The notes below the pieces were generated by a model. It was not told where the DNA came from. It did not search any database and saw nothing but the letters and a program-made list of their open reading frames with translations. A program made the position numbers and the translations under genes. From Blasia pusilla (lineage: Eukaryota), in NCBI GenBank assembly GCA_050084515.1, contig CM114271.1, positions 48,794,001-48,858,000 on the forward strand: 64,000 bases of DNA, written 5' to 3'. Position 1 is the first letter of the stretch. Each line of letters starts with the position of its first letter. Of the stretch, positions 18,701-61,149 are shown one piece after another.

Positions 18701-21278
18701 GCAGCAGCCGCCTACGATTACTTTCATAGTGGCCTAGGTAGGTGTATGAGCAATGTGCAACGATGTTGTCAACAACAAGAGGTATATATAGGCAGAAATG
18801 AATCCTTATGTATTCGTATTGCTATCAACTTGCATTAGGTGTGTATTGCGTTCTTCACATGTTTTCAAGTGCAGACATGGCTGTAAACATAAATGTCATA
18901 TTCTACACTCAGCCGAGATTGTTATGTTAATATGCACTCAAGCATCAATGTTGAATGTCCCTAAGTTACAAAAATATCTCACTACTAGTTGTCACACTAT
19001 GTTTTCTAAAACAACAGCGTGGGTAGGTACATCATCATTGATTGTGTGAATTAAGAGGAGGTATAATGCCTATGGTAACTACCTCAGGTCGATGGGCTAG
19101 CAACTTTCTCGTGTAAACTGAGCATATTTAGGTGTCTACACTCTTGACGGTAGGATGTTTAGGGCATTCTGGACAATAGACCGGAAATTTTCTAAGTGAC
19201 AACTAAATCTAAAAGCTACAATGCACTTATGATGTGGCACAACCCAATGTTTAATGAGATGACTAGAAGTTGCAAGGGGAAATAAAGCATCATACTCAAA
19301 CTCTGGAAGATGCAGATATGTATACATTGCTCGCCATAAACACTACACCCTTAGAAATGTAGGAATAAGATATGATTATGCGACAGTCTGAAGAAGAAGT
19401 TGTCCATATGAAAACAGCATGTGCTTAGCTAGCTACACCTTGGAATGAAGTGGAGAGGTCATACCTGGCTAATGAAGTTACTCAGGAGCAGATTAAGCTG
19501 AAGAAGCAAACATGATCAACCAAACAAATAAGAAGGTGGATAAACAGGGTCTCTATATACATACTTGATAGATGAGTACCCTATTGCCTTATCACCTCAG
19601 CACTATGCAGTACACAGAACATTGTATGCACAATTAGAGCAAGGCTACATGCTTGAAGATAAATTCTGGCCGTACATACCACGTTTCTTGCTGCCAAACT
19701 CTACTAAAAAAATTAAGAATTAGTAACTATAAAGTGTATCAAAAACTTTGTCAGCAAATGCTTCCACAACATGTTGGCCATATAGTCAATGTCGTGCGAT
19801 GTACACACATGTAGTTGTCACGGAGCAATTGAAAACCATGTACCTCCTCGAATTACTCTTGCTTGCACACTTTCAGGCTTACATAGGTGTTGATTGGGAT
19901 GTTGTAGAAACTAACTAGGTAATATTGATTCTTACCTACTGCGCTCAAGCACCAAGTGGAACTACGGATGACTGAAGAACTTTGGAAACTACTGGCAAGA
20001 GGCAATCGTATTTTCATCACATATATGCAGAGTGTCACATGCAAGTGTGCCACACAGGGGGGCATGAGCGAGCACATGCACAGATAGCAATACGCGCCAC
20101 TACAAGATAGCCACGCGAATGGGAAAAAAAAGTGACAACTACAAGAATGAGCAGAGCTCGTCACCTTGACACAAGCAACATCAACATAGCATATGGGTTG
20201 CAAATGGATGAAGAAGTGTGGTGAGGTAGAGGAGGTTGAACTGGTTTTCCTCACCTGAGAAAGCAGCAAGCAGAGAGACAATAGAGACAAGAAAGGAAGT
20301 AACTATCACGATTGAAATTGACAAGAAAACTTTCCAGCACCACCGGGTACATAACCACCGGAGAATTGCTACCAAGGACAATTGTGTGACAAACGTTGGA
20401 AATAAGAGAATAGAGCCCGTGATGGATTTGAACCTAATTTGATGCAAGCTAATGGATTTCTTTCAAGACATTGAACCTCCATTGGGCATAATAACGTGCA
20501 TATTGGCTACTGAAAGGGAATCTACTTCTTTGTGAATAGGAAGAGACTGGCGAGCTTAAGGCAAAAGAATTTAGGGTCGTGAGTTGCAAAAAATGGTGCA
20601 ATGAATTCAGGGCCAAGAACTGCAAATGTGCAAGGCGATAGGGAATCTTTTCAATTGTTTGTCTGAGCCAGATATTGAAATTGTCTAGCCATCAAAACCT
20701 TACATGCTGAAAGTCTAACAGAAGCCGTCCCAAAGCTCCCGCAATGAAGTGAGGTAAGACACAAGGGATAATGGAGGATGAATAAATAAATGTGTCACTG
20801 AAATTTCCTCGCCGCCGACATTTACACTGTGCAGGTCTGATCAATAGAAAATGCATGGTGCATAGTGCAACAAGAGACCTAGTAGCAGAAAAGCATCACG
20901 GCAAAGATAGGGCGCACGAAGGAGAAGGAAATCTTTCCTCAGTTCTTGAGAACGCGCCTGTGCATAAGATACTGCAAGAGCCCACACTTGAATGTGATGA
21001 ATGACGCGCCTGCACAACCATTGTGCCAGGCTGAGCCCAAGTAGGAAATCCAAGAACATCCCGATACCAACCCCAATTCACAAGATGATGGAAGTGGAAG
21101 CACGTAGTGAGCGGGCACACAAAAGCTCTTTGAATTAGTAAGTGCATAGAAAGAAATATTTTTCTTTCTCCTCATATGTATGATAAGATTCACTCCAAAT
21201 TTAGACGATACAATCCGAGAAAAGCTAGTAGAGCAACATCGAGTCCGCTAATAGCTCGAAAAAGGAAATGATGCACTT

Positions 21279-22520
21279 GATAAAAACGGGTGATGGAAAA
21301 CCCATTGGAAGTACAAAAGAGGGGGACTCAAAGAGTCAAAACCTGAAGGCCACAACAAGACCAGAAAAGGAAGAAGGGGGCATTCCCCCCCTGACGACAA
21401 AACTCACCAACAGCAGAGACAATATCAGCAACAACAAGAGAGCTATGACTACTACTAAGTGGGCCTCTAGTGCCCGCGTCTCCCACAACCTGAGCCCGCC
21501 GCAAAAGCCCATTAGCCTGGGCGCGCTGCAATGCTATGGAGACCCGCTGCCTACAATAGAGAATTGCAGTAGCTAAGGACAACCCATTTCTCGATTGGAG
21601 ATGATGGGCGCAGTCCGTAAGGAACGAGTCAAACCTCTCCCCCATAGCCCCATACATCTCTATGGCCAGGGGGATGAAGATGTGTCCCTCGTGAAGTCGA
21701 GTGTAGATATGTGTCTTCTTCGCCGCCGCCGCTCCTTGTAGCATTCGCCCTTAGGCCACCACTTGGGCTCGCACTGCCTCCCGCGTAGGATCTGTAACTA
21801 CCACGTCCGCCACCACCACCTCAACTTCTCGTGTCATATAAAGATCAGCTCGAATAAGGGAATCCCGCATGGAGTAGTGCCTCTCTCTCTGCACATGGAA
21901 GCCACTCTCCCGAGCAATACTGAACATGATATCCCGCACTGAATGGTGAGTGGCTATCCTCTCACCCCCAACTGGACAGCGTGCCAAATGCACACCAAGT
22001 GGATCCAGGCTCCGGTGACACTCGCAGTGTGTCGAACCAACCACCGATGGTTAGGGAAGGCCCAAGCGGAACCGCATCGCTGTGGTATAGGTAAGTGGTG
22101 CGATACAAAAAGCCGGGAGAAGGGGGCGCGCCCCTATCCATGAGTCTGCCCCCTTTGCGGAGCAAGAGCGAATACGGGCCCTAACCTCCATGGGGATATT
22201 CTCGTCAGATATAGTGCCTCTAAAAACTGCCTCAAAGTGGACTTCCATCAAGGAAGATTTGAGCCCAGACTGACCGGAGGTAACTAAGGAGGAGAAAGTG
22301 GGGAGAACGGCTCTGGCCTCAACACGAAAGGAATCTCTACAAGCTGTGAGTGAAGACTGAAGTGGGAAAGAGCCATCCTCAACCTGGGAGACGTAGCGTA
22401 GAAGGAACGATCTATCTCTAACCAAAAATCGGGAGCAAAGGAGGGATGCCACTGTGACCCAACTCCCTAAAAAAGCGAAGGGCACCACTAACTCATTCGA
22501 GAGAAGACCTAATCCACCAA
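21279..22520 (-). mobile_element. CRE-clade non-LTR retrotransposon, 3' portion (RT thumb, CCHC finger, restriction-like endonuclease), 5'-truncated pseudogene
   Basis: FGGLG thumb motif at ~22510, CECHRSLDPLGVHLARC zinc finger, RADL...VADVVVTDP nuclease motif and FIPLAIEMYG...QRVSIALQRAQA tail; one frameshift and a stop at 21751; a 3' UTR stem-loop ATGGGTTTTCCAT. Confidence 0.85.
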
Positions 22521-31444: not shown

Positions 31445-32650
31445 TTTTTTTTAGGGAGTTGGGCCACTGTAGCACCCTCCTTTGCTCCCGATTTTTTGTT
31501 AGGAATAGACCGCTACTTTTATTGTATGTTTCCCAGGTTGAGGATGGTATTTTCCCACTTCAGTCTTCACTCACAGCTTGTAGAGACTCCCTTCTTGTTA
31601 AGGCTAGAGCAGTTCTTCCCGCTTTGTCTTCCCTAGTTACCTCTGGGCAGTCTGGGCTCCAATCTTCTTTGATGGAAGCCCACTTTGATGCATTGTTTAG
31701 AGCTACTATGTCGGACAGGAATATCCCCATGGAGGTTCGGGCCCGTATTCGCTCTTGCTCCGGAAAGGGGGCAGGCTCATGGGTGGGGGAACGTACCCTC
31801 ATCCCGGCTTTCCGCATCGCACCACTTACCTATACTACAGCGATGCGGTTCCGACTGGGCCTGCCCCCAACCAAAAGTGGTTGGTTCGACACATTGCGAG
31901 TGTCGCCGGAGTCTGGATCCACTTGGTGTGCATTTGGCACGGTGTCCAGTTGGGGGTGAGAGGATAGCCACTCACGATGCAGTGCGGGATATTATGTTCT
32001 CTATTGCCCGGGAGAGTGGATTCCACGTACAGAGAGAGAGGCACTACTCCATGCGCGATTCCCTTATCCGTGCTGATCTTATATGACGAGGGAGTTTGAG
32101 GTGGTGGTAGCAGTTGTTGTAGTGACGGATCCTACGTGTGAGGCGGTGCGAGCCCAAGTAGTGGCACAAGGGAGATTGCTACAAGGAGCGGTGGCGGCGG
32201 CGGTCAAGAAGACCCACATTTATAGTCGACTTCATGACGGACATTGATTTATCCCCCTAGCCATTGAGATGATGTACGGGGCTATGGGGGAGAGGTTTGA
32301 CTCTCTCCTTACGGATTGCGCCCATCATCTCCAATCGAGAAATGGGTTGTCCTTAGTCACTACGATACTTTATTGTAGGCAACGGGTCTCCATAGCTTTG
32401 CGGCGTGCCCAGGAAAATGGGCTTTTGCGGCGGGCTCAAGCGGTTGGAGACGCCAATGCTAGAGGCCCACTTAGTAGTAGTCATAGTTCTCTATGTGTTG
32501 CTGATATTGTCTGTGCTGTTGGTGATTTTGGTGGTTAGATGGGAAAGCCCCCTTCTTTCTCCTCGGTCCGGTTTTGGCACCTTGAGATTTTTTTTTCCTC
32601 TATGCCCCCTCATTTGTATCGTGATGGGTTTCCCATCCTATTTTTTATAT
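31445..32650 (+). mobile_element. CRE-clade non-LTR retrotransposon 3' portion nested in the MULE
   Basis: Colinear with the 21279-22490 copy (FLGSWATVA, CECRRSLDPLGVHLARC, RADL, FIPLAIE, QRVSIALRRAQ); 3' stem-loop GATGGGTTTCCCATC then a T-run and (TA)n. Confidence 0.85.
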
Positions 32651-32872: not shown

Positions 32873-34202
32873 ATTTAATTGCGAATTCAGGATCTATAGT
32901 AGGGACCGTAATCAATGTTCACAAAATCCCACAAGCATGGGAATATTCAATCGATTTTTCATGGCCAAACTTATCACCCTTAGTCTCATGTACGTTCACA
33001 ATAGGAATATGGCATCTGAAGGGACGAGGCGCCATCACCCGCTAGGCTCCTGGCCAAAGCTGTAACGTCCAGGACTTTCTGTTCACCGTGAACCAGGAGG
33101 CCACCAGTGGCAAGCCTTATTGAAACTGAGCCTCTCTTTTGTCCAAGCATTGTCTCTCCGAAAGAGCAGGACGGACCGTCAGACGTCCTACTGTAATGGA
33201 CAGACGCATCACTTGTGCGATGATACGGACAACTTTAAATATATCCAGAAAATATGTCCACTTTGGATGGGATTGAACAGTATTAGTGACGCTGATGAAC
33301 TGACGCGTTATCATTCGCAAATCCCCAACGCTTTCTCCTGAAATCCGTGATTATTAGTACATTTCTCGATCGAATTCGGGTCGTCGGATGGCAGGAGGCG
33401 GATGATTTTTGAGCTCTCGTCCGTGGCCATGGGATTGCTCTCTAGACGCTTTTCCGCTTTTAATATTATCATGGTGGATGGCTGGTTCCCCGGATCCCAT
33501 CGGTTTTCAATTTCGCCTGCGCCTACTTTCTTCCCGGCTCTTGGAGTCTTTTTCAACGCATGCAATCAAGCAGTCAAGCAGCAGCCCACTGGGCAGTACA
33601 ACACCTTTTGGAGATGAGAGATTTGCAGGGCAAACCTTCCATTCATTAATACTATTATGCTCCGTCGAGGAACGTGGGGCAAGAATCGAACATTCCATGG
33701 AAGATTTTTCGGGTGATCGGATAAGTTCTGCGGTGTGGGTGGTGAATTCATAGCGACATGTCACGGTATAGGAACGGAATCACGGCAGATGACTGTCACA
33801 CGCGCTTGCTTCAAGATAATGTTTCGTCTTTTTTCTTTTTAAAAGGAAGAGGTGAGTGTAATGGATTGGCACCATTACGTACTTAAAAGGGAGCTTTGGA
33901 GTGTGATCTGCCAGATCAGAGCAGACCAGACGGGAACAGTCGTAGTGTGCTTCTCTGTTCTGCTCTGCAATACACCGTACCTTCAAAGCTGCGCGCTAGA
34001 CGATCTAGTCTTTAGGGAGTAGATCGTTGATAGGCTGCACCTGAAGCCCTCCGGGTTGAACAGCGCAGTTCACGATCTATCCAGGGTCGAGGGGCCAGCC
34101 ACCGAGGGTGTCAATTTGCACAAATTGAGAGCGTGTACAAGACCCTGCTGCCGAACTGTTCTTCCACACCTTCGCAAGCTGTGGAAATACAGTTTGAAAA
34201 GT

Positions 34203-37200
34203 ATGGAAACTCAGGAGACGGGACGAGGGAAGACGGTTTGTGTAACAGGAGCGGGCGGATTTTATGGCTCTTGGATGGTTTCCCAGCTCCTGGAGCGAGG
34301 CTATCATGTGCGAGGTACGGTGAGGCATCCAGGTACTGTAATTCTCTGCACGCTAAACCTTCGTTCTGTCCATCAATCTCTTCTTCACATCGTCCTGAAG
34401 TGGGATCCGGTGCTTGTCTAGAGGTGGTGAACGAACCCAGCTAGCTCTGGCTCCCGATTTCACCTGTGATTCAGTTTCGTTAAATACTCGTATGTCGTGT
34501 TGATGGCCGAATGACGAGATGGCATTTTACAAACTTCCGATTTTATCCTTGAGTGATGATAGTATGCTGGAAAAGTAGCTGTCGATTCTGACTTTACGGT
34601 AGGGCAGCTAAAGAAATGGCTATTTGTGGATTACTTTCCGAAAGATCAGTCAATTGCTGCTGAACGAACGGCTGGCTAGCCGTGACTTCCATGCAAATCG
34701 GTTGATTACCGATCGATGACTTTCCTTTAGCGTCTTCAATTGGTAAGTGGAGGCTAACTGTAAATGCGTTTGTTCTCAGAAAATGAGGAGAAAAATGGCC
34801 ACTTGTGGAAAATGAAGGGCGCCAACGAAAGGCTTCAGCTGTTTAAGGCCGACGTGTTGGACTACGATGCAGTCGCTCTTACCGTTGCAGGATGTGCTGG
34901 AGTCTTCCACACAGCGTGCCCCGTCGTTGTCGACATGGACGATCCTGAGGTGAGCTTCGCCGCTATGAACGGCTTTCAATGATGCTTCCAAATTAACTAT
35001 GCGAACCTCGTGTAATGTCTCTAAAAATTCGTGAGGTGTGAAGCTAAACCACACTCTTCTATCCAAATCAGTTTACTTCTACCTCGGGCTTTCTTTTGAA
35101 TTCGCTGTCTCCTAGTTCGTGGGTTTCCCATCGGTGGTCTTGTTCTGAGCTGTAGTCTGGCATCGAACAGAATTCATGTAGCTCTGCGGTATGATTTAAA
35201 GCTTTCATCCATAAATAGTCTCCAGGAAATTTGGAAACGAGTAGACAATGTGGGAAGTGAGAAGAGTTATCTTCATAATCGAATAACTCTATCGGCGAGA
35301 AAATTTTGGGCACCCATCTATTTGGAATCAGGAGATTGTGGACGTTTGGCTTACCTGAAACTTTGAGAGACGTGCTTTATTTTCCTGTGATATGAAAGCA
35401 GGAGGCTATGGTAAAACATGCATTCGAGGATCGATGAATTGGTACTTTTGATGAAGATTACTCACTAATCTCCTGAAGGTTGTTCTGTCTTCTGTTGCAG
35501 AAGGAGATGATTCAGCCCTGTGTCCAAGGAACCTTGAATGTCCTGAAAGCATCATTCAATGCAAAAGTAGGGCGAGTCATCTACACAGCAAGTATTCTCA
35601 CTATGATGTATAACAAAGAAAACGATGGCAAGCTATGTGATGAGACCTGCTGGTCTGATCCCGACTTCTATCAAAGCATTGGGGTATGTCCATCCACACC
35701 AGCTACCCAGTGCTGTCATCACTTTCATGGATTTTTATCTCCATGCTGGTGTTCAAGAAACTTTGGCACCACTTCATCCACTGAGGTTGAAATCCCCTTT
35801 TCTTGCACCTACCTTGGAAACGCAAGTGGCTTTTGGCTCCAAGTTAGCAGAAAGAAACCCCTTGTCTGTATTCTCTTCACGCACACAAGATGCACAATGC
35901 TGATCTGTAACAGACAGGACTCACAACTGACTCGCCAGACTCTTGCGGTCGCAGTACTGGTATTGTGTAGCAAAAGTACAAGCCGAGAGAGCAGCATGGA
36001 AATTTGCAGAGGAGAAAGGGTTGGATTTGATCTCCATTTCTCCAGCTACGACATTTGGACCCACGCTGCAGAAAGAGACGAACTTGAGCTCTGCTGCCAT
36101 GCTAAATGTCTTTTTAGGTGAGCGGACCTTCACACTTCCTGGCTTTAATGGTGGTAACAACAATATGTATGAATGTATTCATGAAGTAGTTACCAGCGGT
36201 TTGGACTGGGTTAGGTGGGGGTTGTCTGTTTGTGAGCTTCCAAGACTTGCTTAATCCATGGGAATTGGTAACCAATACACCACCTTTGACCTTCGATGAT
36301 TTTAGATCAAAGCTGTTCTTGGCCTTAACTTCTGAATGAATACGGCGTGTCGAAGAAGGCCATTAAAAGTGTGGAGTTAGATCGTATGGACATTGGGATA
36401 GCCCTGAGTAACTAGTTGTTGGATTACTGATTTTCTGACAGCCCACAGATATGTCTCTCCCTCTCTTCTGAGTTATATTGCTTACATCTTCTCTGGTTAT
36501 GATAATAAAAAAGAATGGACCCTACTTTATTGTTCCCTGCACAGGCTCATACATTGAATCTCATACAGCCGGCCCTTAAACAATCGGTAATGAATAAATT
36601 GACCTCTTACCCAAGGGGAACGAATGCCACACCAAGAAAGAACTGAGAAAAAGACGGAATGGTCGTCCAGAGTAAGTAACAATTCCTGATGTTCAATTGT
36701 AAAGATCAAACAACGATGTAGGAACGTCGCTGTGAGAATCTGGTTCCTCCTGGTCATGGAAGCACTCACATTGATGACAGGAAGCTTTGAAAGAAATCCT
36801 TTGTGTATTTCTCATGTTTGAGTTGTAATATCTGTCGATATTGTCGGACTTCCCTTTCTGTGACCAAAAACTGTTTCCGATTAAAGATTCCCGGCAATGT
36901 ACAGGGTCCCACGGGAGAACTCCCCGAACCCTGGCAGGAACCATAGTTGTTGAGGGGGAGAATGAAAAAGAAAGTAGAGAGCAAATGAATGATTTTCCCA
37001 ATGAAAAGTTGGAAATAAATTCCACATGGTCACCAGTGCTAGTCGGTGAATGGACTTCTTAATTGATTGAGATACCACGAGACGTCACTCAGCTATCCAG
37101 TGCAGCAAGGAATCTAGGTTATTGATGACGATACTTTTGGTGGTACTCGGTTGCCTATCGCGGCACAGGTTGATGCTTTTGGAGTGAATTTCGCAAAAGT

Positions 37201-45472: not shown

Positions 45473-45550
<78 letters not shown>

Positions 45551-45955
45551 AACCCACTCTCCTAATGAGAGGTTTGGGTTACATACAAAAGGCAAGGAGG
45601 ACCATAACTATGTCGCCTCATGCCAAGAGGTTCAACAAAGAGAGATAAGCTCCCTCTATTTGGGTATACCCCCTTCCCTCTCCCAAGATCTCTCCACTAT
45701 TACCTATGATCATAGGTCATCTCCTTGGCTCTTGACTTCTTGTAAGAGTTCAAAGGCCACTTTCTAAAGTGGAAATTCAACTATGCACAAAATAGTAATT
45801 TACCCAAAATAGTAAGTTTCTATGTATGGCTCCAAATGAGCCGAAACAAAGGCAAAACCTGCTCTCTCAAGTTACCCGTGGCCTCAGCAAGTCACACTCG
45901 ACCTCCATGATGGCACTCTACTATATCTCATCGATCTATCCTAAAAGACGTGATA
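45313..45955 (-). mobile_element. Short composite remnant: partial LTR-like segment fused to a (CT)n-containing terminal segment
   Basis: 45313-45435 matches 45958-46085 and 57792-57905; 45435-45955 matches 60600-61149. Confidence 0.65.
45480..45546. repeat. (CT)n microsatellite
   Basis: Direct observation; a paralogous tract lies at 60644-60705 in the same repeat family. Confidence 0.97.
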
Positions 45956-45957
45956 TC

Positions 45958-46152
45958 TGTTATGCGCATACATATCGTTACACAACATACATCACTGTCA
46001 TCGATCACACACACAAACACACATGATCTCATGCTTACTCATGGCATCCAAACGTCGAGACGATAAGCACCAAAATATCTCCAATTGCCGCCCTAGCTCG
46101 TGGTTAGGTCCCTCTAACTCCATATAGCCATTTATCCCTAGCTACCATGACA
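45958..46152 (-). repeat. Candidate short (~195 bp) 3' LTR
   Basis: Bounded by TGTTATG...CATGACA (terminal inverted repeat, TG..CA); a homologous block lies at 57792-57977; no clear polypurine tract. Confidence 0.5.
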
Positions 46153-46269
46153 TGCATCTCTAGGATGCTAAGAGCAAAAAGGTCGGGTGCTCATGTGACC
46201 CCATCGTTATTCATCTTCTTGTCATCCATGTTATAGACACAAGTCAAAATCTATAACTACCTATATATT

Positions 46270-47661
46270 CTATGCACATCGAGGGCACATCCATCATCCT
46301 TGAGGAACCCTAGTGAGAAGGCATAGACATGCCATATGTCACCCTCTTCAACATCCATCATATACTAACATAGTGGCTGCACCACGGACGGAATCACACA
46401 ACATATATTGCAAGCTTATAGGAACTACTGCTAAGCTTGGAATAATTGTACTATCAATGTTAGGAAGGTGACATCGCCTACAGTTACGTTCATGGTCCTT
46501 CCAAACCATACCATCGCGTCCCTCCAATAAGAGAACACCAGATGGAAAAATACCATGCACTCTCTAAATGGTGCGCCCTCTACTCACATCCAACGTCATG
46601 GATGTTTTTTATTGCAAGTAGATGTAATCTCCTTGATGAAACCTCTAGATAGTTGCTCGATAATCACCTCTCCGAATAGTCGCATACCTCAAAGTATCTT
46701 GATGTTGCGCAATCGCCAAGTTCTCAAATGACATGGGCATCACTCTCCAAAATAACTCAGGCCTCTAAGAATAAGCTTGCATCCATACATCATGGTCATC
46801 AAAGTTCAACACCTCATCAGCATCTTGACGAACAGCCACAGGTTAATCTGGCTCTCGGCCATAAAGCAGCAAGTATGGTGAGAAAGACGCTAAGGATGCC
46901 TGCTTGTTGAATCTGTATCTCATCACCAACCATGGTAATTGGAGGTCCCAATCTCCTAGGTGACCTCTCTACAAGCCATACTTACGTAAACCTCTCTACT
47001 AGTCCATCCTCCTTAGGATGATCTCGATAGTGGTGCGGTGGTTAATCAATGCCTGATCATACAAGGCTTGAAACTCCCTGTGAAAATCCGTATCCTAGTG
47101 TGTCAACACCTTAGCTGGTACGCCATAATGACTCAGCACTAGATCTAGGAAGGCATACACTACTTCTTCACTCCCTTTGTGAAGAAATGCAACCAACTCT
47201 ATCCACTTCGAGAAGTGTTCAACCATCACCAACACATAGCAACTATGGCGCTCTATCAAAGGTAAAGGTCCTGCCAAATCCAAACTCCATCTATAGCCTA
47301 AACCTATGATCGGAAGTGGATGCAACTGTGGAGTCGGAGCATTGAAGAATGCCCAGACTCGATCACACACCATGCACCTCGTAACAAACTGCTCAACATT
47401 AGTCTGCATACCTCGCCACCAATACTCTTTCTAGAGCAAGTTGTACGTCCGCTTCACTCCAAAATGACCCAACTCCTTGTGGGCATGATGCACCAAACGT
47501 GCTCTCTGTAAAGGATGAGGCACTACACACACTCTACCATCCTCCCAAACTTGAAACACATGTGTTCCCTCCCACCAGAGTCGTTTGGCTTGCTCTAGGA
47601 TCCGATCCCGCTTTCTAGCATCCACTGTGCTTGCGACGCTACTAGTATGCAAGTACTCCAA
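46270..47661 (-). pseudogene. Gypsy integrase with C-terminal PHD finger (disrupted)
   Basis: HHAHKELGHFG and CMVC zinc-binding motif, WSLDLAGPLP...VEHFSKW core, then DHERNCRRCHLP and a decayed PHD; several stops and frameshifts. Confidence 0.9.
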
Positions 47662-47879
47662 GACTATTCCATCCTCGTGAATATCTTGGCTACCTCTCGT
47701 CTCCTCACTGGCCTTTGGATCTAAGGACCCTCCATCAACTTTGTCATCAAAGTCTTAGAAATTTGGCTTTCCATAGCCAACAAGCCCAAATAGGCTAACA
47801 CGTGCTATCCATGCACCAACTCCTCATCACTCTCTCCATGCCACCAAGCTCCAATCGCATCTTGCTGACTCGGGCATAG

Positions 47880-48492
47880 ATTACGACTCAACCCATCAAC
47901 ATCTTAGTGGAGCGTCCCAGATCGATGTACCATCTAGAAATCATACTCCTGAAAAAAGAAAGCCCAACTTGCAAGCTTCCCTATAAGCTTGTCGGACTCT
48001 ATCAAGCAGTTAAGTGGTTGATGATCAATGATCATGGTAAAGGGGTTTCCAAATAAATAACACGTGAAACGTGCGATAGCCCATATTGCAGCGAAGCACT
48101 CACCCTCATTCAAGCTATACTTTGCCTTTCTGGCGTCGTTCAAGGAACTAGCGTAAGTCACCATGAACTCTCTATCCTCATCGTCATACTGGGTGAGCAC
48201 GGCTCCAAGCCCCAACATGCTCCAATCTCTATGCAATTGGAAAGGACGCTCCTTGATCGGTCTCCTCAATATGGGCACGGACGTCAATCTATGCTTGAGC
48301 AGCTGAAATGCTCTCTCTGCTCATCCCCCCAGCGCCTCTCGTGATCCACCTTGGTCAACAAGGTTAGCGGCTTCGCAATCGAACTGAAACACTTGATGTA
48401 CCGTCCATAGAAGTTTGCCTATCCCATGAATGCACGAACTTGCCTCACATCTATAGGGCATGGAATGCATGAAATAGCCTCTACCTTCGTCT
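47880..48492 (-). pseudogene. RT C-terminus/connection and RNase H of gypsy pol
   Basis: KVEAI...VRAFMG*ANFYGRYIKCFSSIAKPLT, then DWSMLGLGAVLTQ...EGECFAAIWAI...DHQPL...QEYDF. Confidence 0.9.
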
Positions 48493-51400
48493 ACAAAGAC
48501 ACATCAAGGAGGATGTCGCAAAGAAAGTGGCCGAGGTACAAAGAAACTCTTCGGGATCAAAGCCCGGAGTGATCAAGTTAACAACAACATCACAAATTTG
48601 TGAACAACTGCTTGGAATCCCTGGGCAAGGCGAGATCACAACTTCTGAGGAGAAACAACTCTGGGAAAATCTCGCATTTCTCGCTGATCCTGAATGCTTT
48701 GGGAATTTGCTACGTCAAATACGGGTACTGGATGGAAAGACGGCCGAAATGGATGCCATTGCCAGAATCAAGGCCAACTCCAGATTTCCATTTATTCAAA
48801 GATAGCAATTCATGGGCCAGAGAGGCAAAGGATCCAGGGCTTATATCTTCAAAATGTCAACGATAGGGCCGTCGAGTGGCCTCGATCTTATAGATCGAAT
48901 GAGGGAAGGGGAAGATCTTTACGGCAGTTGGGTAAGCTTTGATATTTGCTACAGAGTGCTGGATGGATGGTTGACTATGGGTGCTCACCTTTATGACCAT
49001 GTGGAGAAGGGACAAAAACTATATTTGTCTGTGAGATAAAAGCAGAAGACATTGGCAGTTTGAAGATGTGTTGGTTAATCTTATTGGAGGTGGTGAAGGA
49101 AAACAAAAGGCCACCTCTGGAAATTTATGGATTCATGGCGGACAATGCACAACCTGGGTGGATTACTATCAAGGAAGTGTTCTCGGATGGAGAGGTTCAA
49201 CTAGAGAGGGAAAGGTTGGATGCTTTCCATTGGCAACAGTCTGTGACCCGGTGCACCAAATCTTGCATCAAGGAGAATAAGAGGACAGAGCATGTCAATC
49301 TACTCCAATGCTGCAAGGAGAGCAAAACCTTGAAACAGGCCATGGAGTGCCAAGAAGAACTACACGGGTGGTGGAGGAAGCATGCGATTGAGGGGAAGTA
49401 TAAAGAGTTGTGCTCTTGGCTCAGTTGGTGGACTGTACGAATGAGACAATGGGGAAACTTCATGCGGCAAGTGAGTTCAGTATTTTGTCGTGTCGAGCTC
49501 ATGCTGAGATTGTTTGAAAAGTTGCAACTCAAGTTAAGAAGCATGGGCACTATAGGGATTTCAAACTGAAGAAACCAAGCAATCCGTCGGATGCAACGGG
49601 TTGCCTGAGTGTGCAACCAGTCGGAAACCGACGGGTTGCATCAAGAATGTTTGTGTTTCCCGGCAAAGCGCGACATCATGCATGAGGAATATTTGTGCAA
49701 CCCGTCGGAACGGGACTGGTTGCATGACTGTGCAACATGTCGAATCTCGATGGGTTGCAAGTTGCATGTATACAAGGTCTGCAAATATTTCGACCCGGAT
49801 GGGTTGCAAGCCGCAAGATTGCGAGTTAACTCGGTCTGCAACCCGTCAGATTCTCACAACTTGCGTCTGTCTGCAACGTGTCGGATTCCGACCAATTGCG
49901 TCTGTATGCAACTCCTCGCATTCAGACATGTTGCGGAATCCGACAGGTTGCACAAGCATTTTCGAGACCGGACCGGCTTGCTTCTCACAACCCGTCCGAT
50001 TTTGACGGGTTGGAGTAGTAGGTTCTTGGGTCCTAGGTTGCAATAAAAGGTTATTGGGACATTCCAGGGATGTCTCCGACTTGCAACCCGTTTCAAGTCG
50101 AAGGCTGGAAAATCCATGTATGACCCGTCGGATTCTGATGATTTGCACTTGGATCTTCCAGCCCGGAGTGGCCAAAGTTACTTGCAACCCGTCTGAATCC
50201 GACGGGTTGCAGTAGGTGGTTCTTGGATGTTGCAACAAGTCGGAAACCAACCGGTCGCAGAGTCATTCATGGGATGCTTCCAACTTGCAACCCGTCTGGT
50301 TCTGACAGGTAGCTTTTTTCTTTGCTCATAGTGCTATTTTCGTTCCCTTCTCACATTGCCGTTGTTGCAGGGATTGAACATTCATGAAAATGCCCTCTGC
50401 CCCAACACAAGTGGATCAGAAAGTGTTCATTCCTCCTTGAGGTCGTCACAAGCATGCCAAAGAATTTCACTTTTGGAGGCATGCCAACAAGACCAGGCAA
50501 GAGCAATGCTACAGTCTGCAGCATCCCATATCTTTCTCACAAAATGCATAACAAAAGGAAGGGAGCCTTCAATTTACGAGCTCTATGTCAGGGCGGCTGT
50601 GAGATCTGGTGCTGAAAAACTCTATGTGGAAGCCTTCAATTGGTGCATAGCAGGAACTACCCTTGAGCAAGATTTCCACATTGGTGGGGACATTCGTGGG
50701 CGTGTTAAAAGACGTCCCATACATATGGTGATAGACCAGTCCGAGCGAGACTCGTGGAGACCAGATAAGTATCTTAACTTCAGGCAAGTGAAGAGGAAAA
50801 ATCGAGGAACAAACTTGGTGATTGATTTGGATGAAGAAATTACACGTCCCAGGTATTTAGAGACGCCGGATTGCTCCCAAATCCGTGATGCAGTAACCTC
50901 TCCAAAATCACTGAATGTTTTATTTCAAAAAAATCCTCCGTTGTTGGAAGTTTGCAACATCCGGTCTTTGGGGTGGTTCAACAGTATGGGATTCCGGTCA
51001 TTGAGGTGGATTGCAACCTCAAAAGGTGGCATATATCTCGGAGCAACCTTGGACGTGGATCCACTTGTAGGGCAGAATCTGATGGCATTAGGAGAGCATG
51101 CGGCACTTTCCTAAATAAGAACTGGACGACCACTGCTTGGATTTTGGGGACTCAAAACCTTTGATCGTTTCACGAGGACCGGGGATCAATTGAAGTACTT
51201 CTTCTGCCCAAATGAATCTTGCGCTTTTCAAAAGTCTTATCCGGCTGCCATTGGAGCTCTAGGGAATACCCCCACGATTTGGCCCATTGCCGCAAGTACG
51301 AATTGCACTCAGGACGAAGTGGACAATCTTACAAGTGTTGGTTTCATACTCATAGACGGAGGAAGTTCGGAGCATGTTCGCATTACAGAGACCTTTGCAT

Positions 51401-52300
51401 TTCGTATTCAACCCAAGATTGATTTCAACATGTATCTAAAGAAGGTGGATGATCTCAATCCACTATTTTTGTTTGAGTGTAGAAATGGGGTGAAGAGAAA
51501 CAAAATGTGTAAGCCGACGGTGGAGAGAGCAAAGCAAATTGCATCAGCTCAAGAGGCAAACATGGAAATCATTGCCACAAAAGATGTCCAGAGTAGCAAT
51601 GGAATAGGAAGGATGTATTGGGTCAGGAACAACACTGTCAATTCAAGTGTCATAGGGGTGTATGTGGTGCACATATGTTGCTTTCCCACATGTTCCTATG
51701 ATGACTTTGTCCAAAGAGAGACAAGTGGGAAAAGAGATTTCCCTTGTAAGCACTTGTACTATGTGTTGCTTGTAGTTTTAAGAGAGTTGGAGCTAGGAGT
51801 AGGAATCCACCAACCAATTATATCCCTCAAAGAAGTACAAAGTATTTTAAACAAACCAGTTTGAGGATGAAAAATGAGATCTTAGATTGTACTTTCATTT
51901 GCCAGAACCTTCACTTTGAGCTTGAATGATACATTTTTTCCAAACCTTGGATGGAAAAAGTGATTTGTTCCACATTTATGATTCCACTAATTTTTCAGTT
52001 TTTTAAATTTCATGCAAATTGCAACCCGTCGGATTCAGATGGGTTGCCAAAATGTGGAAGAGGAAAAAAAATCTGTGGGAGTGCCTAAGCACTGAGAACA
52101 AAAGTGCAAAAAAATTCACAAAAAAGTTTCCTCTCTTCAACCCAACAGAAACTCTCTTCAAATCACAGGAAACTCTCTTCAAAGAAAAGTATCTCTTTGG
52201 GTTAAAGGTAGTTTCCTCTCTCCTCTCTTCCTCTCTCCTCTCTCCTCTCTTCCTCTCTCCTCTCTCCTCTCTTTCTCTCCTCTTACCGCTCCTCTCTCCT
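48493..52300 (+). mobile_element. 5'-truncated MULE-like transposase/SWIM fragment occupying the RT position
   Basis: WVSFDICYR, GFMADNAQPGWITIKEVF...DAFHWQQS, NTSGSESVHSS and SWIM-like PTCSYDDF...PCKHLYYV; intron ~49471 (GTGAGT) to 50370 (TTGCAG); stops present; no TIR or TSD visible. Confidence 0.75.
49580..50315. repeat. Array of ~15 degenerate 29-bp palindromes, consensus TGCAACCCGTCGGA-N-TCCGACGGGTTGCA
   Basis: For example 50183-50211 TGCAACCCGTCTGAATCCGACGGGTTGCA; copies are separated by variable spacers; an isolated copy lies at 52020-52048. Confidence 0.9.
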
Positions 52301-52479
52301 TGTGTACCTGCAAAACATCCCAAGAAGTCCAAGGATGTCTCTCTGGGTCTCCCTTGGTGTGTCGATCTCCTCGGGTCTCGCCCCCAGCCACTGCCTCCAC
52401 AGTCTTGGTAGGCATGGGGCTCACCAATGCAACCGCTGTGATCTGTCGCGATCTCATCCGACGCTGCTCAGCCACTCCC

Positions 52480-53430
52480 AAGCTGAAGATCCATGTCAAG
52501 CAGTTCAAGTCCATTGCTTGACCCAAGACATGGCGTCGTGATGCCTCTGACACTGATGGTACTGCCGTTACTCCTGTGGGAAATCCCATTGCCCACTCTC
52601 TCTTGTCGGCGTTGGGCTTCACCGACCTGTGAACCTGGTCATCCCAAACCAAGCCAGGACCGGCCTCCTTATATGCATAGGAAGCGGGAAAACTCACAAA
52701 CGTGGAAAAGGCTGCCCGCGGCCAGCCTACCCTGTTGACCACAATCAACACCGGTCGATCGTCGTGTCTCACTGCTTGTGATCGACGACCCGGATCTTGA
52801 ATGAAATTCACTAACAAGTGGGAGGGACTCTCCACTCTCGTATACGCCCTCCGCAACACCTCGTGTGGTACCATGTTGGTCGACCATAGACGCGGGAGAT
52901 GTGCTCGAGAACCCACACTCGCCCCATCCAAAACTAATGCTAGGCCGATCCAAGAACCCACCTGATGTGTACTTGTCACCACCCGTGACCTCGAATCGCC
53001 CAAGATCGGTACATTCTCCAGAATGTAAGCCGGTGAACGGGAGTGATGCTCCTGCAAATATCTCAAGACCCTCAACATCTCCCAAAATAACTTGGATCGA
53101 GTGTTAGCCAACCCGATGCCTCGTCTAGCACTTGATTGACCTTGACATGGCCAACCTGCAATGACCAAATCAATGGTCCCTACCCACTCCAATACCTGCG
53201 CCCCTAGCAACAAAATATCCCTCGGTAGGGAACTTTGGTACCCCTCTACCGCGGACGCAGACAACAAGTTGGGAAAACATAGGCGTAACTGTGCCACATG
53301 TCATAGTGAGACGCGCCTTGCAACATCATCATTCTCCATATATAGGTACTGCTGCACTCGCACTCTTGGTTGCAAAACAACAGCTAACCCGGTGCTAATC
53401 CCTCCAAAGAGATCTAACACCTGAATAACC
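52480..53430 (-). pseudogene. C5 cytosine DNA methyltransferase domain (Dnmt3/DRM-like appearance) within retrotransposon pol
   Basis: Motif I VLDLFGGISTG (53420), II YMEND, IV DLVIAGWPCQG (catalytic Cys at 53145-53147), VI YILENV, VIII RAHLPRLWSTN, IX REWAMGFP, X LGQAMD, all in one frame with a single TGA at 53301-53303. Confidence 0.92.
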
Positions 53431-53849
53431 TCCTCCGGAATACGCCACACAATGGGTGTGGTATCCAAGGGTGTCATTGTAGTACTCCCTGCTACCTCGG
53501 GTTCCTCAGACTTGTCACGCTCCGATGCAAACGCCTGGCTCCACGCGGTTTACACCTGCTCATCTTCCAATCGTCGAAGCTCCTCAATCAAGCCCCACAG
53601 CGGCACCTCTCCTCCACGGAATGATGCGGCTACCATAACACTCCTCTCCATAGAAACCTCAGGAATGGGAGTATCCTCTGCATAATCATGTTCCTCAATC
53701 AAATCACTAGGCCAAGTGATGGCACTACTAAATGCTGCTAAGGTCGCCACCTCTCCTGGCCGTCGCTCGATCACTATACCTGTGAATCGAACAAGTAATG
53801 AGCTAAGGCGCCCATCGCCTCACTGCCATCCTAATCTGTTGGACGCTGA

Positions 53850-55340
53850 CTCCTCCGAATAATCCAGGGAAAACCCCATCGGGTATAACACTGCTCCACC
53901 AACCAAGACGTCGTAGGACTCTGCATCAATCATTATCGCCTTGGCTCGCACCGCGGACTCATCTGTAGGATGTCCAAGGCGAATCTTCACCACGACCTGT
54001 TGTCGGGTGATATACTATGTGCTCCTTGCTCCACCCAAAGATATCTGTATCCGAAATGGACAACGCTCCACATTGGCTCTCATCAAGCCCAATCCTCTGA
54101 ATGACACTTTCCCCAACATCAGGGGTTGCGCTCCTAAATCCAACAAGACGCGTTGCGGACTAAAAGCTCTACCTCCGGGACTCACCAAGTGGAAGACCTC
54201 TCCTTGGTTACCCAGCAACACAACACTAGGAGAAGCCATGGCACACTCTATCGCGGGTCTAGCGGGCATCTCCGCCATCCTAGCAGCCGCAGCCTGCCAT
54301 GAATATGACGTGGACGGCCGGAGCATCCGCTCTAAGGGCAGGTCCATCACCTCCTCTGCAATCACCTCTAAACATGATACAAGAACTCCAACTCCGTAGT
54401 GACATAGTGAAGCGGCCAACCAAAAAGCCTCAGCGGGCGTACCCCCCAACGTCATAACATCGGAAGAAAAAAATTAAGGAGTGCGGTACACAACAGTGGC
54501 CGCCCCCAACAACGTGCTCGACACATGCCCCTCCTAAGTATCAAAAATAGGAGTCATGGCACTCGCTTCTCCCATCGCCTTCCGTGCGTGTACACCAACA
54601 ATATCACCAACTCTCCAAGAACTTTGATGAGGAACCATTGATGGGGTCCTCATCGCTTCGGACAACGAGAAAGATTGAGGAAGCCTAGTTTGTTTTCTGG
54701 CTTCCCCTCGCTGTGGATCCAACTCTGCGGTTGCTCCACGCATCACATCTATGACGGCCTCTATTTGGACAATCCCGCACATCCAACCAGGATCCTCCAT
54801 ATCTCTGGCTGCTCCATATGATGTCGATGCCACGGATCCGGCATCAGGTAACCTCAATGCCATAGTGAAAATCTGCTGCTATAGCTGCTGTATCTGAGCA
54901 GCCATCCTAGCCTCACATCCAACGTCTCCCTCGGTGCGTCTAGATGGTGGTACTCTACCTCCTCCACGGGCAGCTCCACCACCCTATCGGGAAACTCCAG
55001 CTCCTCGTCCCCCAACGGGACCACTTGGTGCACGATCTCTAGGCCCACCCGGACCGGCTACTTGCTCTAGTGCCCTCTCTGGCCTTGGGTCCAGACATAA
55101 CTCAGGATGTAAACTGAAACACATGGTGCGTGTATGACCATACCTTTGACAATAGTACACTGATAACCTCTTGGTGCAGCACCATCTCCTCCTCCATACT
55201 AAGGCACAAGTCCGTGACCCTGATGAGTGCAATCGCACTGATGATGGGCTCCACCAAATGACCAACAAGTAATAGTAGGCGGTTGTTGCTGAGCGGCATA
55301 TGAAGGTCCATGATTATTGAGTCTAGGAAGTCCATATTAA
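53850..55340 (-). pseudogene. gag C-terminus and aspartic protease of the methyltransferase-bearing element
   Basis: Zinc knuckle YCQRYGHTRTMCFSLHPEL (~55110-55165), RVLLDLGAQPLMLG and YDVLVGGAVL; frameshifted. Confidence 0.75.
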
Positions 55341-57791: not shown

Positions 57792-60637
57792 TGTTGTGCG
57801 CATACACATCGCTATCACCAAATACACAAAAAAAATACACAAGATACCATACTAACTCATGACATCTAAACATCAATGACAATCGAGAACCAAAATCTCT
57901 CCCATCGCCTGGGGCCCCTAGCTATTGGTTATGTCCCTCTAACTCCAGATAACCATCTATCCCTACCTACCATGACATACATATCTATGACGCTATGAAC
58001 AAAGATGTGAGGTGCTCGTGTGGCTCCGATCCATTGTTAGTTGCCTTCTTGTCATCCATGTTAGAGACCTAAGTCAAAATATAGAACTACCTAAGATCTA
58101 CTCTTTGTACATGTGGGGCACATCCATCGTCCATGATAAACCCTAACGAGAAGTGGCATTAAACATGCCATATGCCATCCTCTCGAACACCCATTGCAGA
58201 CTAGCATAGTGGCTACATCACGCACAGAATCACACAACATACAACGCAAGCCTGCATGAACTACTACTAAGCTCGGATCAACTCTCCCGTCAATGTTAGG
58301 AAGGTGACATGATGCACAATTACGCACATGGTCCTTCCAAACCATACCATTGCATCCCTACAAATAAAGAACATCAGATGGCAAGACATCTCGCACTCTC
58401 AAGATGGTGCGCCCTATGGGCACATCTAGCGTTGTAGGTGCCATATGTTGCAAGGAGACATAGTCTCCCCGATGAAATGTCCGGATAGTCGGCCGATATT
58501 CTACATCCAGAAATACACAAAATGGTAAGCTTGCTCAGGAAGTAGGTCTTCATGTACACAATCAAATGGATCCAAACTCCTGATCCACATACTCTTGCGT
58601 TCTTTTCTTGTCCACTTGGAATTCTCACGAAGTTACCTTCCAATGTGCAGGTAAAGACAATACCTCTGTCAATTGACAAAATCATTGTTATGTGCTGAAT
58701 GTAAGCGTCATAGGGGTAGGAGTACAATTCATTGGCACCGCGCAATTTTTCCTTTTGAAGTTTCTGCATCAAAATCATGGGAACTGGGCAAAATTGATCT
58801 GACAATAGGGAAAGATCGCCGCACATGGTAAAAGACTTGCTTGCTTCCCGGAACAGTGATCTCGTCTTTTTGAGTTCAATTGATGCCGCCAGTGCCACGG
58901 GGTGGAGGGTCTTGAAACGATGGAGGCAATGGTCATAAAGGGATCCATCGCAGCTGCTGACGCTCCAATGTCATGAGCGTTTGCGTCCCACATGCTGACA
59001 AAAACACGTCCGGAAACTCAGGAAACGAGTGGCCATAGCCATGCGGGTTAATTGTAATAAGATTCACAATAATACTCTAATCATTCTTAGGAGGAACCGG
59101 GTATCCGGCTCCCATTACCAAAACTTAGCCATTGACAGTAGTCTCTTGAAGACTGCTCAGAGTTTGGAGAGGTAGGAAGTTTATTGTGAAGAATCGTCCG
59201 ATCATGAGTTGTGGAAAAATCTTTGCCAATAAGTATCATTGCTGTCGCATGAACCTGGCATCGAGCACAGGGGTGAACACCTCTGAGCAAGATCTGAGTT
59301 AGGGACGTTGCTGCAACCATGGATGAGCCCCAGGAGAGTAAGAAACTCCTGAAATTACCTTTGAAAATTTTCACTCACGGCTTGCGATTAGAATTTGCTG
59401 GCCACACTTCTCCGCCTAGTACGTGTAATCAATTTTTCTTGCCAGCCTCCTCCGCTTATAGTTGCTACAATTTCGGACCCCATTTCGACTCCAGCGCCTC
59501 CACACGCTCCATTCCACTTGCTCCACCGTCAGAACAGTAGCTCTCCCATCTCGAAAGTAGACTCTACATTTCTCGACTCTAAAGAATGATCAAAGGCTAC
59601 GAGGTGTCGGGCTCCCTCTGGAAGACGCAATTTAGCACATACAAGTGAAGGGACACCTAGCAAGAAAATCAAATCAAATCATCCACAAACACTTAACCAA
59701 TGGAGCTGGGGTACCGCACAAGTCCAGAATAGAGTCCCCATAAAATAGATAGATTTTAAGAAAGGCTTCACTTCTTATAGACATTTCTTTTGCTTCTTTT
59801 TCCTTTCCCCATATAGTAATCCCCCCATGTTTCAATAAGAGTATAGATTCTCCTGACCATTTGGATCCTCCATCATTAGTTGCCTTCTTGTCATCCATCT
59901 TAGAGACATAAGTCGGAATCTATAACTACCTAGTATCTACTCTATGTACATTTGGGGCACATCCATCGTCCCCGAGAAACCCTAACGAGACATGGCATTA
60001 AACATGCCATATGCCACCCTCTCGAACACCCATTGCAAAGTAGCATAGTGGCTACATCACGCACAAAATCACACAACATACAACGCAAGCCTGCATGAAC
60101 TACTACTAAGCTCGGATCAACTCTCCCGTCAATGTTAGGAAGGTGACATGACGCACAATTACGCACATGGTCCTTCCAAACCATACCATTGCATCCCTCC
60201 AAATAGAGAACATCAGATGGCAAGACATCTCGCACTCTCAAGATGGTGCGCCCTACGGGCACATCTAACGTTGTTGGTGCCATTTGTTGCAAAGAGACAT
60301 AGTCTCCCTGATCAAACCTCAAGATAGTCGGTCGATAATCACCTCCTCGCATACCTAAAAGTATCCCAATGATGCGCAATTGCTAAGTTCTCAAACGTCA
60401 TGGGCATAACTCTCCGAAATAACTCAACCCTTCAAGAACATGCTCTCTTCTTGCGAAAAAATTGGCAACGCTTCCACACTTCCACAGATCTTGCTCCCGT
60501 GAGCCATTGAACAAGGAACACGGTCTCCAACGTGCAACCACATTGAGAAACCAGCAAGCTTCCGCATTGAAGAGCTCTCAATCTCTCATTCTCTCTTTGT
60601 AAATCAAGGTTCTCTCAAGAAGCTCTCTCAATGTGCA

Positions 60638-60708
<71 letters not shown>

Positions 60709-61149
60709 GAGAGGCTTGGATTAATCAAAGGCAAGGAGGACCATAACTCCGCCACCTCATGCTAAGAGGTTCAACAAAGAGAGAATAAGCTCCAATGATC
60801 TCTCCCCTTGGCTATACCCCTTCCCCTCTCCCAAGCTCTCTCCACGGTAACATATGCTCATAAGTCACCTCCTTGGCTTTTGAGTCTTGACCTTCTGTAG
60901 GGGGTCAAGGGCCATTTCTCAAAGTGGAAAGGAAGCTCTACTCAAAACTATAATTTACCCAAAATAGTAAGTTTCTCTATAAAATTCCAAACGAGCCAAA
61001 AAAAGGGGAAACTGCTCTCATAGGTTACGTGTGGCCTCAAAGGTAATTTATGGCCTCAGTAGGTCATCCTCGATCTAGTGAGGCTGTCCTCCACTATCCT
61101 TGAAGGCGCTCGACTATAAACTCGTCGATCCATCCTAAAAGACGTGACA
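57792..61149 (-). mobile_element. Non-autonomous derivative of the same gypsy family: two integrase-tail/PHD copies around unrelated DNA
   Basis: TGT...ACA termini flanked by TCTA on both sides; the joined flanks match an uninterrupted paralog at ~62025-62145; PHD ORFs at 58091-58345 and 59942-60379 (CMLC...CNGCSRGWHMACL...WMCPKC). Confidence 0.75.
60644..60705. repeat. (CT)n microsatellite
   Basis: Direct observation. Confidence 0.97.

Follow-up and report, generated by a model that had tools for sequence, protein, structure and literature searches.

The window analysed here is a 64-kb stretch of the Blasia pusilla assembly (GCA_050084515.1, contig CM114271.1, positions 48,794,001 to 48,858,000 of the forward strand). 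It possesses on its minus strand the remains of a retrotransposon with a cytosine-5 DNA methyltransferase (C5-MTase) domain in its polyprotein. The favoured span of this element is 55313-45500, in window positions like all coordinates below. This span is very probably a decayed and rearranged Ty3/gypsy copy, in which gag-pol carries a C5-MTase of the DNA methyltransferase 3 (DNMT3) type between protease (PR) and reverse transcriptase (RT), and a PHD finger behind the integrase (INT). The listing of open reading frames (ORFs) and the translation showed that the gag C-terminus, a protease-like region, a linker and the C5-MTase follow each other in a single phase from 55313 down to 52182. The RT remnant, RNase H (RH) and integrase of the window are of the Ty3/gypsy kind. 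With the domain in frame behind gag and PR, and RNase H and integrase downstream, the first-pass annotation of this DNA was right to place a C5-MTase inside the pol of a Ty3/gypsy element. The features of the element are given below in the reading order of the minus strand, followed by a detached gag fragment. P numbers denote related proteins.

54987-55313, minus strand: C-terminal part of gag with a CCHC zinc knuckle (CYYCQRYGHTRTMC); ORF listing, and tblastn of Marchantia P0059 (aa 336 onward) and P0107 (aa 341-370 and 386 onward)
53823-54521, minus strand: aspartic protease region interrupted by in-frame stops (VLLDLGAQPLMLGK ... AESYDVLVGGAVLYPMGF); one high-scoring segment pair in tblastn, P0065 aa 27-694 against 54521-52488
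53550-53822, minus strand: linker from PR to MTase, the least conserved stretch; proportions of nonsynonymous (pN) and synonymous (pS) differences between window and related loci 0.444 and 0.723, n=66
52509-53417, minus strand: catalytic domain of a DNMT3-like C5 cytosine methyltransferase, motifs I to X collinear; Pfam PF00145, motif coordinates, PDB profile, Foldseek
52296-52508, minus strand: conserved C-terminal extension of the DNMT module (CLTWIFSLGVAEQRR ... HPWTSWDV); family alignment, and tblastn of P0107, which extends to 52296
52213-52300, no strand: (TCCTCTC)n microsatellite, where family homology stops; Tandem Repeats Finder
48540-52180, plus strand: foreign DNA of about 3.8 kb in place of the RT core; gap in tblastn homology
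48305-48538, minus strand: RT remnant, final ~60 residues; tblastn of P0065 aa 914-976 and P0274 aa 1586-1646
47811-48320, minus strand: RNase H domain; Pfam PF17917 (5.8e-25) and PF17919 (1.1e-22)
46522-47754, minus strand: integrase (H2C2 zinc finger plus catalytic core) interrupted by stops and a change of frame; weak Pfam matches to PF17921 and PF00665, and tblastn of P0274 (aa 1816-2234) and P0075 (aa 1148-1649)
46276-46420, minus strand: remains of a PHD finger at the C-terminus of the integrase, broken by three in-frame stops; translation and homology to the PHD of P0075
45497-45886, no strand: uncertain candidate remnant of a long terminal repeat (LTR) downstream of the PHD; 80% identity to 60644-61039
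17936-18723, plus strand: N-terminal gag fragment of the same family; tblastn of P0059, P0073, P0103 and P0107

The protease ORF of the window gave no Pfam match. Asp_protease_2 was found by Pfam at the matching place in the relatives P0071, P0053 and P0126.

Methyltransferase domain and its affinities

The MTase frame of the window extends from 53549 down to 52182 on the minus strand. Translation placed six motifs in it, at the computed positions below.

53417-53388, minus strand: motif I, LDLFGGISTG
53156-53133, minus strand: motif IV, GWPCQGQS, with PCQ intact
53027-53007, minus strand: motif VI, YILENVP, with ENV intact
52913-52884, minus strand: motif VIII, GSRAHLPRLW
52610-52578, minus strand: motif IX, ADKREWAMGFP
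52526-52509, minus strand: motif X, LGQAMD

The match of the window domain to C5-MTases is far beyond chance because of its score against Pfam PF00145 (35.9 bits, gathering cut-off 22, E-value 7.3e-9) and the E-values of its closest relatives (2.7e-141 to 3e-143, with 59-62% identity and 99% query coverage). The NCBIfam model TIGR00675 scored 35.3, below its cut-off of 100.65. The signatures expected of a C5-MTase, FxGxG in motif I, PC with the catalytic cysteine in motif IV and ENV in motif VI, are represented by LDLFGGISTG, GWPCQG and ILENV. The domain aligns to its relatives in one frame over 390 residues.

A profile built from 17 family members was compared with all chains of the PDB. DNMT3A (2.5e-18), DNMT3B (1.4e-15) and DNMT3C (3.7e-15) ranked before plant DRM (2.5e-9 to 8.7e-7), HaeIII and HhaI (about 1e-5; HaeIII 1.2e-5) and DNMT2 (about 1e-3). 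DNMT3A aligned to the family profile in three collinear stretches representing motif I, motifs IV-VIII and motifs IX-X. The DRM enzymes are related to DNMT3, as their profile matches reflect, but their motifs are permuted (VI-X before I-V) while the window shows the order I, IV, VI, VIII, IX, X. The DRM chains aligned only at profile positions 19-147, through chain residues 225-350 at their C-terminal end, as expected for a permuted enzyme.

Structure prediction was made with an alignment of 17 rows and with X at the stop codon. The AlphaFold model of the domain had a mean predicted local distance difference test score (pLDDT) of 55.9, and the catalytic half reached 70-86. The PDB matches listed for this model by Foldseek were all DNMT3A, DNMT3B or DNMT3C, with E-values around 1e-8. 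Neighbours in the ESM Atlas were generic C5-MTase clusters only (phage and haptophyte, 0.94), which supports the superfamily and does not inform on origin.

The catalytic fold and the order of motifs are shared with host DNMT3, as represented by the animal DNMT3A/B structures and by PpDNMT3 in the available portions of Yaari et al. 2019 (PMC6453930). The motif VIII region of DNMT3A (AHRARYFWGNL) also resembles that of the family profile (AHRPRLWWTNL). Unlike host DNMT3, the window family is without PWWP or ADD domains, without introns and within a polyprotein, and in the profile alignment the family has PCQ where DNMT3A has PCN. No PWWP or ADD reader domain was found in Pfam scans of the window ORFs and 12 relatives; upstream of the window MTase lies the protease, where canonical DNMT3 has PWWP and/or ADD.

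By profile ranking and predicted fold, the window domain is DNMT3-like and collinear, and not a permuted DRM. Translation reproduced the coordinates, the pol (minus) strand and the motif list of the first-pass annotation, including the intact PCQ and ENV, and the proposed search with a hidden Markov model (HMM) was passed on PF00145. The absence of introns agrees with the one-frame alignment, and the exclusion of a captured DRM agrees with the collinearity with DNMT3A and the restricted DRM match.

Family architecture, hosts and selection

The distribution of the arrangement was analysed in proteins and in metagenomes. A near-length protein search, in which 8000 candidates were scored, recovered 55 relatives with best identities of 59-66%. 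Ten of the 55 carry organism names, from Calypogeia fissa, Sphagnum troendelagicum, S. jensenii, Marchantia polymorpha and Closterium NIES-54. A search for longer proteins gave 22 relatives; the 15 named ones are 13 Marchantia models, one from Calypogeia and one from Sphagnum fallax. Overall, the named hosts are Marchantia, Calypogeia, three Sphagnum species, five Closterium strains and Scenedesmus.

The PR-DNMT-RT arrangement, in full Gag-PR-DNMT-RT-RH-INT, is common to the Marchantia, Calypogeia, Sphagnum and Closterium proteins. Marchantia P0065 shows a protease region, DNA_methylase, RVT_1 and RNase H in this order, and Closterium P0053 shows CCHC, protease and DNA_methylase. Two metagenome proteins, P0126 (2188 aa) and P0274 (2327 aa), are unbroken and possess CCHC, protease, DNA_methylase, RVT_1, RNase H and integrase in order. 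A metagenome scan gave 120 relatives, from which 80 loci (L001-L080) were kept. Of the 47 loci that extend at least 1500 nt downstream, 45 have RT after the DNMT, and of the 51 with room upstream, 44 have a protease before it. Pairs of LTRs surround the DNMT in five of 13 long loci (170-340 bp, 88-94% identity, 7.1-8.9 kb apart). Judged from these orders, the DNMT is a fixed part of the polyprotein across many copies and hosts, and the first-pass idea of a family in place of a one-off insertion fits both the named bryophyte and Closterium proteins and the metagenome loci.

All 80 metagenome loci are decayed, and only five have no stop in the aligned domain. The stops in the DNMT of these loci are mostly of the C-to-T kind (CGA to TGA 91, CAG to TAG 43, CAA to TAA/TAG 58), which is consistent with the decay expected of methylated DNA.

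In spite of the decay, active-site residues are retained in most of these dead loci. The catalytic cysteine occurs in 76/76 loci, and PCQ and ENV are both intact in 56/75. Individually, P is kept in 73/76, Q in 69/76, E in 72/80 and N in 78/80, and the F-G-G residues of the S-adenosylmethionine (SAM) pocket in 68-70 of 71. Between the window and the loci, pN and pS were 0.262 and 0.771 for the DNMT (n=80), 0.218 and 0.695 for RNase H (n=40), and 0.317 and 0.779 for the protease (n=56). Synonymous sites are saturated in these comparisons (pS 0.70-0.78). At saturated pS the pN of the DNMT is close to that of RNase H, and therefore its long-term constraint is similar to that of a core pol domain. 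This pattern of substitution indicates long-term purifying selection on the DNMT domain.

In a full HMM search against 1.84 billion representatives, 8368 hits passed E<=1e-3, 1694 passed <=1e-10 and 440 passed <=1e-30. Among the 150 representatives listed, all of which belong to the element family, domains were placed by blastp with segments of P0065 and P0075. This revealed 56 with DNMT alone, 14 with PR-DNMT and/or DNMT-RT, and 80 with a second order, RT-RH-DNMT-INT-PHD, or parts of it. The second order was confirmed by Pfam in P0075, P0076, P0077 and the pol of the chlorophyte Scenedesmus sp. PABB004 (P0189). These elements, which include many metagenome proteins, form a larger sister group. 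Their DNMT belongs to the lineage of the window DNMT (E 1e-41 to 1e-49), their RT, RNase H and integrase are of the same kind, and they too have a PHD behind the integrase, but their DNMT is situated between RNase H and integrase, while that of the window family is situated between PR and RT.

A DNMT tree covering both orders was constructed without outgroup (IQ-TREE quick, LG+G4). From 243 proteins with a DNMT hit, those with at least 300 profile positions and an assignable order were drawn, giving 110 rows (30 PR-DNMT-RT and 80 RH-DNMT-INT) and leaving out 133. A single change of architecture suffices on this tree. The PR-DNMT-RT rows lie together on one side of a branch with a support of 95 in the Shimodaira-Hasegawa-like approximate likelihood ratio test (SH-aLRT), and they group with 13 rows of the RH-DNMT-INT type at SH-aLRT 98. 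The window falls in a group of 15 rows (SH-aLRT 99), in which all nine named members come from liverworts; the four Closterium rows that carry a name fall elsewhere within the PR-DNMT-RT group. Because all named members of its group are liverworts, the land-plant family supposed at first pass is well supported.

Decay of the window copy and surrounding features

The window copy is an ordinary relic, a dead pseudogene. It cannot be active because of its stops, the lost RT core, the split gag and the broken PHD. The gag-PR-DNMT frame contains eight in-frame stops between 55313 and 52182, one of which, a TGA at 53303-53301, is inside the MTase domain. The RVT_1 core is absent, as P0274 residues 1292-1585 (~294 residues) have no tblastn counterpart in the window. 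The arginines of motifs VIII and IX and an open frame, which are features of a working enzyme, are lacking in the window copy and present in the family consensus. At the motif VIII site that reads HLPR in the window, the loci have R in 52/80, H in 18, C in 8 and Y in 2, and at the arginine site of motif IX the window has W where 51 of 76 loci have R.

Three details of the first-pass annotation thus hold in part. The position between protease and RT is correct for the family; in the window copy only the last ~60 residues of RT are left, and about 3.8 kb of foreign DNA lies between. The single stop is correct for the MTase domain and not for the whole gag-PR-DNMT frame. The HLPR of motif VIII is present, but it is particular to this copy.

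The foreign DNA (about 52180-48540), which separates the DNMT from the RT remnant and is unrelated to the element, contains plus-strand ORFs of 190-260 aa, one of them with a C-x-C ... C-x-H pattern. No Pfam family was found in these ORFs at E-values up to 1. It also contains eight copies of a palindromic motif of 28-29 nt (49612-50314, plus one at 52020-52048), which has no copy elsewhere in the 64-kb window. It probably represents what is left of an unclassified DNA transposon; the label 'MULE-like' was considered and dropped, as Pfam gave no family at this threshold and the window has no second copy.

Upstream of 55313 the N-terminal half of gag is absent. In protein coordinates, the plus-strand gag fragment at 17936-18723 ends where the minus-strand gag (55309-55154) begins, about 36.5 kb apart, and the two halves overlap by 40 nt with 85% identity at 55306-55267. 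The plus-strand half is possibly the missing 5' part of the element. The split may have arisen by inversion of some 36.5 kb, through a join made in assembly or from two truncated copies, and the inversion model has no LTR pair to support it. No LTR pair was found for the copy in the window, and the candidate LTR at 45497-45886 has no matching copy on the 5' side. The 390-bp repeat formed by this candidate and 60644-61039 (80% identity) may be an LTR remnant of the family, though its position relative to the second of the two fragments described next misfits a simple element.

Integrase-PHD fragments of a related element are situated at 57833-58508 and 59869-60426, with 78% nucleotide identity to 46015-46759. 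They are 92% identical to each other and 1839 bp apart, representing a local duplication. Their PHD fingers are better kept than that of the element (PF00628 7.2e-8 at 58091-58357 and 1.5e-6 at 59942-60382).

Elsewhere in the window, an inverted repeat of 1.1 kb (21349-22474 / 31447-32578) has arms of 85% identity 9 kb apart, and its ORFs of 140-190 aa match no Pfam family. An intron-bearing host gene at about 34100-36100 on the plus strand is of the cinnamoyl-CoA reductase (CCR) / NAD-dependent epimerase kind with a GAGGFYGSW motif. The sole database relative found for its exon at 35477-35776 is a Malus CCR2-like protein (47% identity, 58% of the query covered). Scans of the 64-kb window for Rfam families and tRNAs found nothing.

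Known counterparts, possible role and significance

The nearest published counterpart is KnitGypsy-Dnmt3 of Klebsormidium nitens, whose gypsy Pol includes a Dnmt3 domain that is intronless and non-permuted and has a ratio of nonsynonymous to synonymous substitutions (Ka/Ks) below 0.2 (de Mendoza et al. 2018, PMC5890265, cited throughout from its available portions). Like the window family, it represents a Dnmt3-type domain in the gypsy Pol of a streptophyte, with key residues kept and under purifying selection (PMC5890265). It differs in its host, a charophyte alga, while the nearest named relatives here, from liverworts at about 60% identity, mark the present host as a land plant. By the published description it also has a DIRS-like repeat structure, while the loci related to the window have plain LTR pairs. 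No Klebsormidium-named sequence was present among the relatives found in the protein and metagenome searches. SymbioDIRS-Dnmt3 of Symbiodinium likewise carries a Dnmt3-type domain in a retrotransposon Pol, and its de novo CG methylation was shown in yeast, but it belongs to the DIRS elements, has a tyrosine recombinase, lives in a dinoflagellate and is described as an independent acquisition (PMC5890265).

An intronless DNMT in the Pol ORF of a Ty3/gypsy element is the defining feature of gypsy-DNMT3, and it is found in the window. DNMT3 within streptophyte gypsy Pol has been published since 2018, and the present family extends this published kind into land plants. As far as their available portions go, later works mention only 'streptophytes' for such elements (PMC12344493; preprint 10.64898/2026.05.21.726589), and those of PMC11982613, PMC6453930, PMC5784723 and PMC10952607 make no mention of transposon-borne DNMTs in bryophytes. 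No literature report of a DNMT-bearing retrotransposon in a land plant was found in a search outside which lay supplements, figures, Repbase and subscription journals, where the family may be catalogued.

For the living members of the family, a role in methylating new DNA, as in the self-methylation supposed at first pass, can be proposed tentatively. The MTase would be produced as a part of Gag-Pol and would go with RT and integrase into the particle or the pre-integration complex. With SAM, it would there methylate the newly made DNA of the element, or DNA at the insertion site, and the new copy would thereby enter the genome with a host-like methylation mark already on. The PHD finger of the integrase may read histone tails and so influence the choice of chromatin for integration, in the way that chromodomains guide it in chromoviruses. 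The DNMT adjoins RT or integrase, in elements with a PHD finger on the integrase. A similar proposal, that retroelement DNMTs methylate retrotranscribed DNA, has been made before (PMC5890265). We regard the present proposal, that the MTase rides with Gag-Pol and methylates new DNA or the insertion site, as possible but somewhat short of probable.

Several observations weigh against this picture of a working, selected DNMT3-type enzyme. No family member has shown activity; in yeast, CG methylation was obtained with SymbioDIRS-Dnmt3 and none with KnitGypsy-Dnmt3, a result that the authors consider inconclusive (PMC5890265). The longest open frame over the DNMT among the 80 loci is 451 aa. In the 38 of 80 loci covering both domains (630 pairs with usable distances), the summed pairwise ratio of nonsynonymous to synonymous divergence (dN/dS) amounts to 0.55-0.70 in the DNMT, and RT of the same pairs gives 0.37-0.58. 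Neutral decay inflates both ranges, which lie under 1, and the DNMT is looser than RT, so its constraint looks weaker than that of RT, or blurred by neutral decay. Among these close dead copies it is also weaker than the Ka/Ks below 0.2 of Klebsormidium (PMC5890265). The structure model is moderate at its mean pLDDT of 55.9, with the target-recognition part below 50, and the label 'DNMT3-type' reflects a ranking of profiles and predicted folds and not a rooted tree with canonical enzymes.

Some of these points would fit a domain kept for another role, either as a non-catalytic DNA- or chromatin-binding module which recruits or titrates host enzymes (DNMT3L-like), or as an RNA 5-methylcytosine methyltransferase acting on the genomic RNA of the element. 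The looser constraint among close copies and the lack of DNA methylation by the algal counterpart in yeast both suit it, and RNA methylation has been raised for a DNMT borne by a long interspersed nuclear element (PMC5890265). However, the catalytic cysteine, the PCQ/ENV residues and the F-G-G of the SAM pocket are widely kept and would not be needed by a mere scaffold, and the closest structures are the DNA enzymes DNMT3A/B/C and not DNMT2. Another role is unlikely. Much less likely is a domestication of such elements into host genes, with the bryophyte proteins as their products and the window copy as a pseudogene of one of them. The Marchantia and Sphagnum relatives are indeed annotated as ordinary gene models, some of them named DNA (cytosine-5-)-methyltransferase, but those models carry gag, CCHC, protease, RT and RNase H and are numerous (13 from Marchantia among 22 long hits), related loci are bounded by LTRs, and RNase H, integrase and PHD come after the DNMT in the window. 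A one-off capture, or a fragment of a neighbouring host DNMT3 gene, has next to no probability: the missing RT core and the foreign DNA give the window a patchwork look locally, but the domain is in frame with gag and protease, no PWWP or ADD appeared in Pfam scans of family members, and the identical order in Marchantia, Calypogeia, Sphagnum and Closterium proteins, the locus counts (RT following in 45/47, PR preceding in 44/51) and the unbroken polyproteins refute it.

When methylation of new DNA or insertion sites by a Gag-Pol-borne MTase is joined with the tree and the two architectures, a wider history can be suggested, which is speculative and on present evidence rather improbable as a whole. 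A green-plant lineage of Ty3/gypsy elements with a PHD finger on the integrase would have carried a working DNMT3-type MTase since before the split of chlorophytes and streptophytes. A single relocation in the ancestor shared by Zygnematophyceae and land plants would have brought the module from the junction of RNase H and integrase to that of protease and RT, and living bryophyte members, including those in Marchantia, would methylate their own cDNA or insertion sites. Relocation of a domain within a retroelement is seen cleanly in the two positions that one DNMT lineage occupies in pol.

Retrotransposons which encode the silencing enzyme of their hosts are known from dinoflagellates and one charophyte alga. 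The family described here is old and widespread and is common in liverworts and mosses, and its many gene models in Marchantia polymorpha bring such elements into a tractable land plant with good methylome data. They also carry a warning for annotation, as bryophyte models named 'DNA (cytosine-5-)-methyltransferase' may be transposon genes. If the history outlined above is true, a part of the 'de novo' methylation of bryophyte hosts would be written by transposons.

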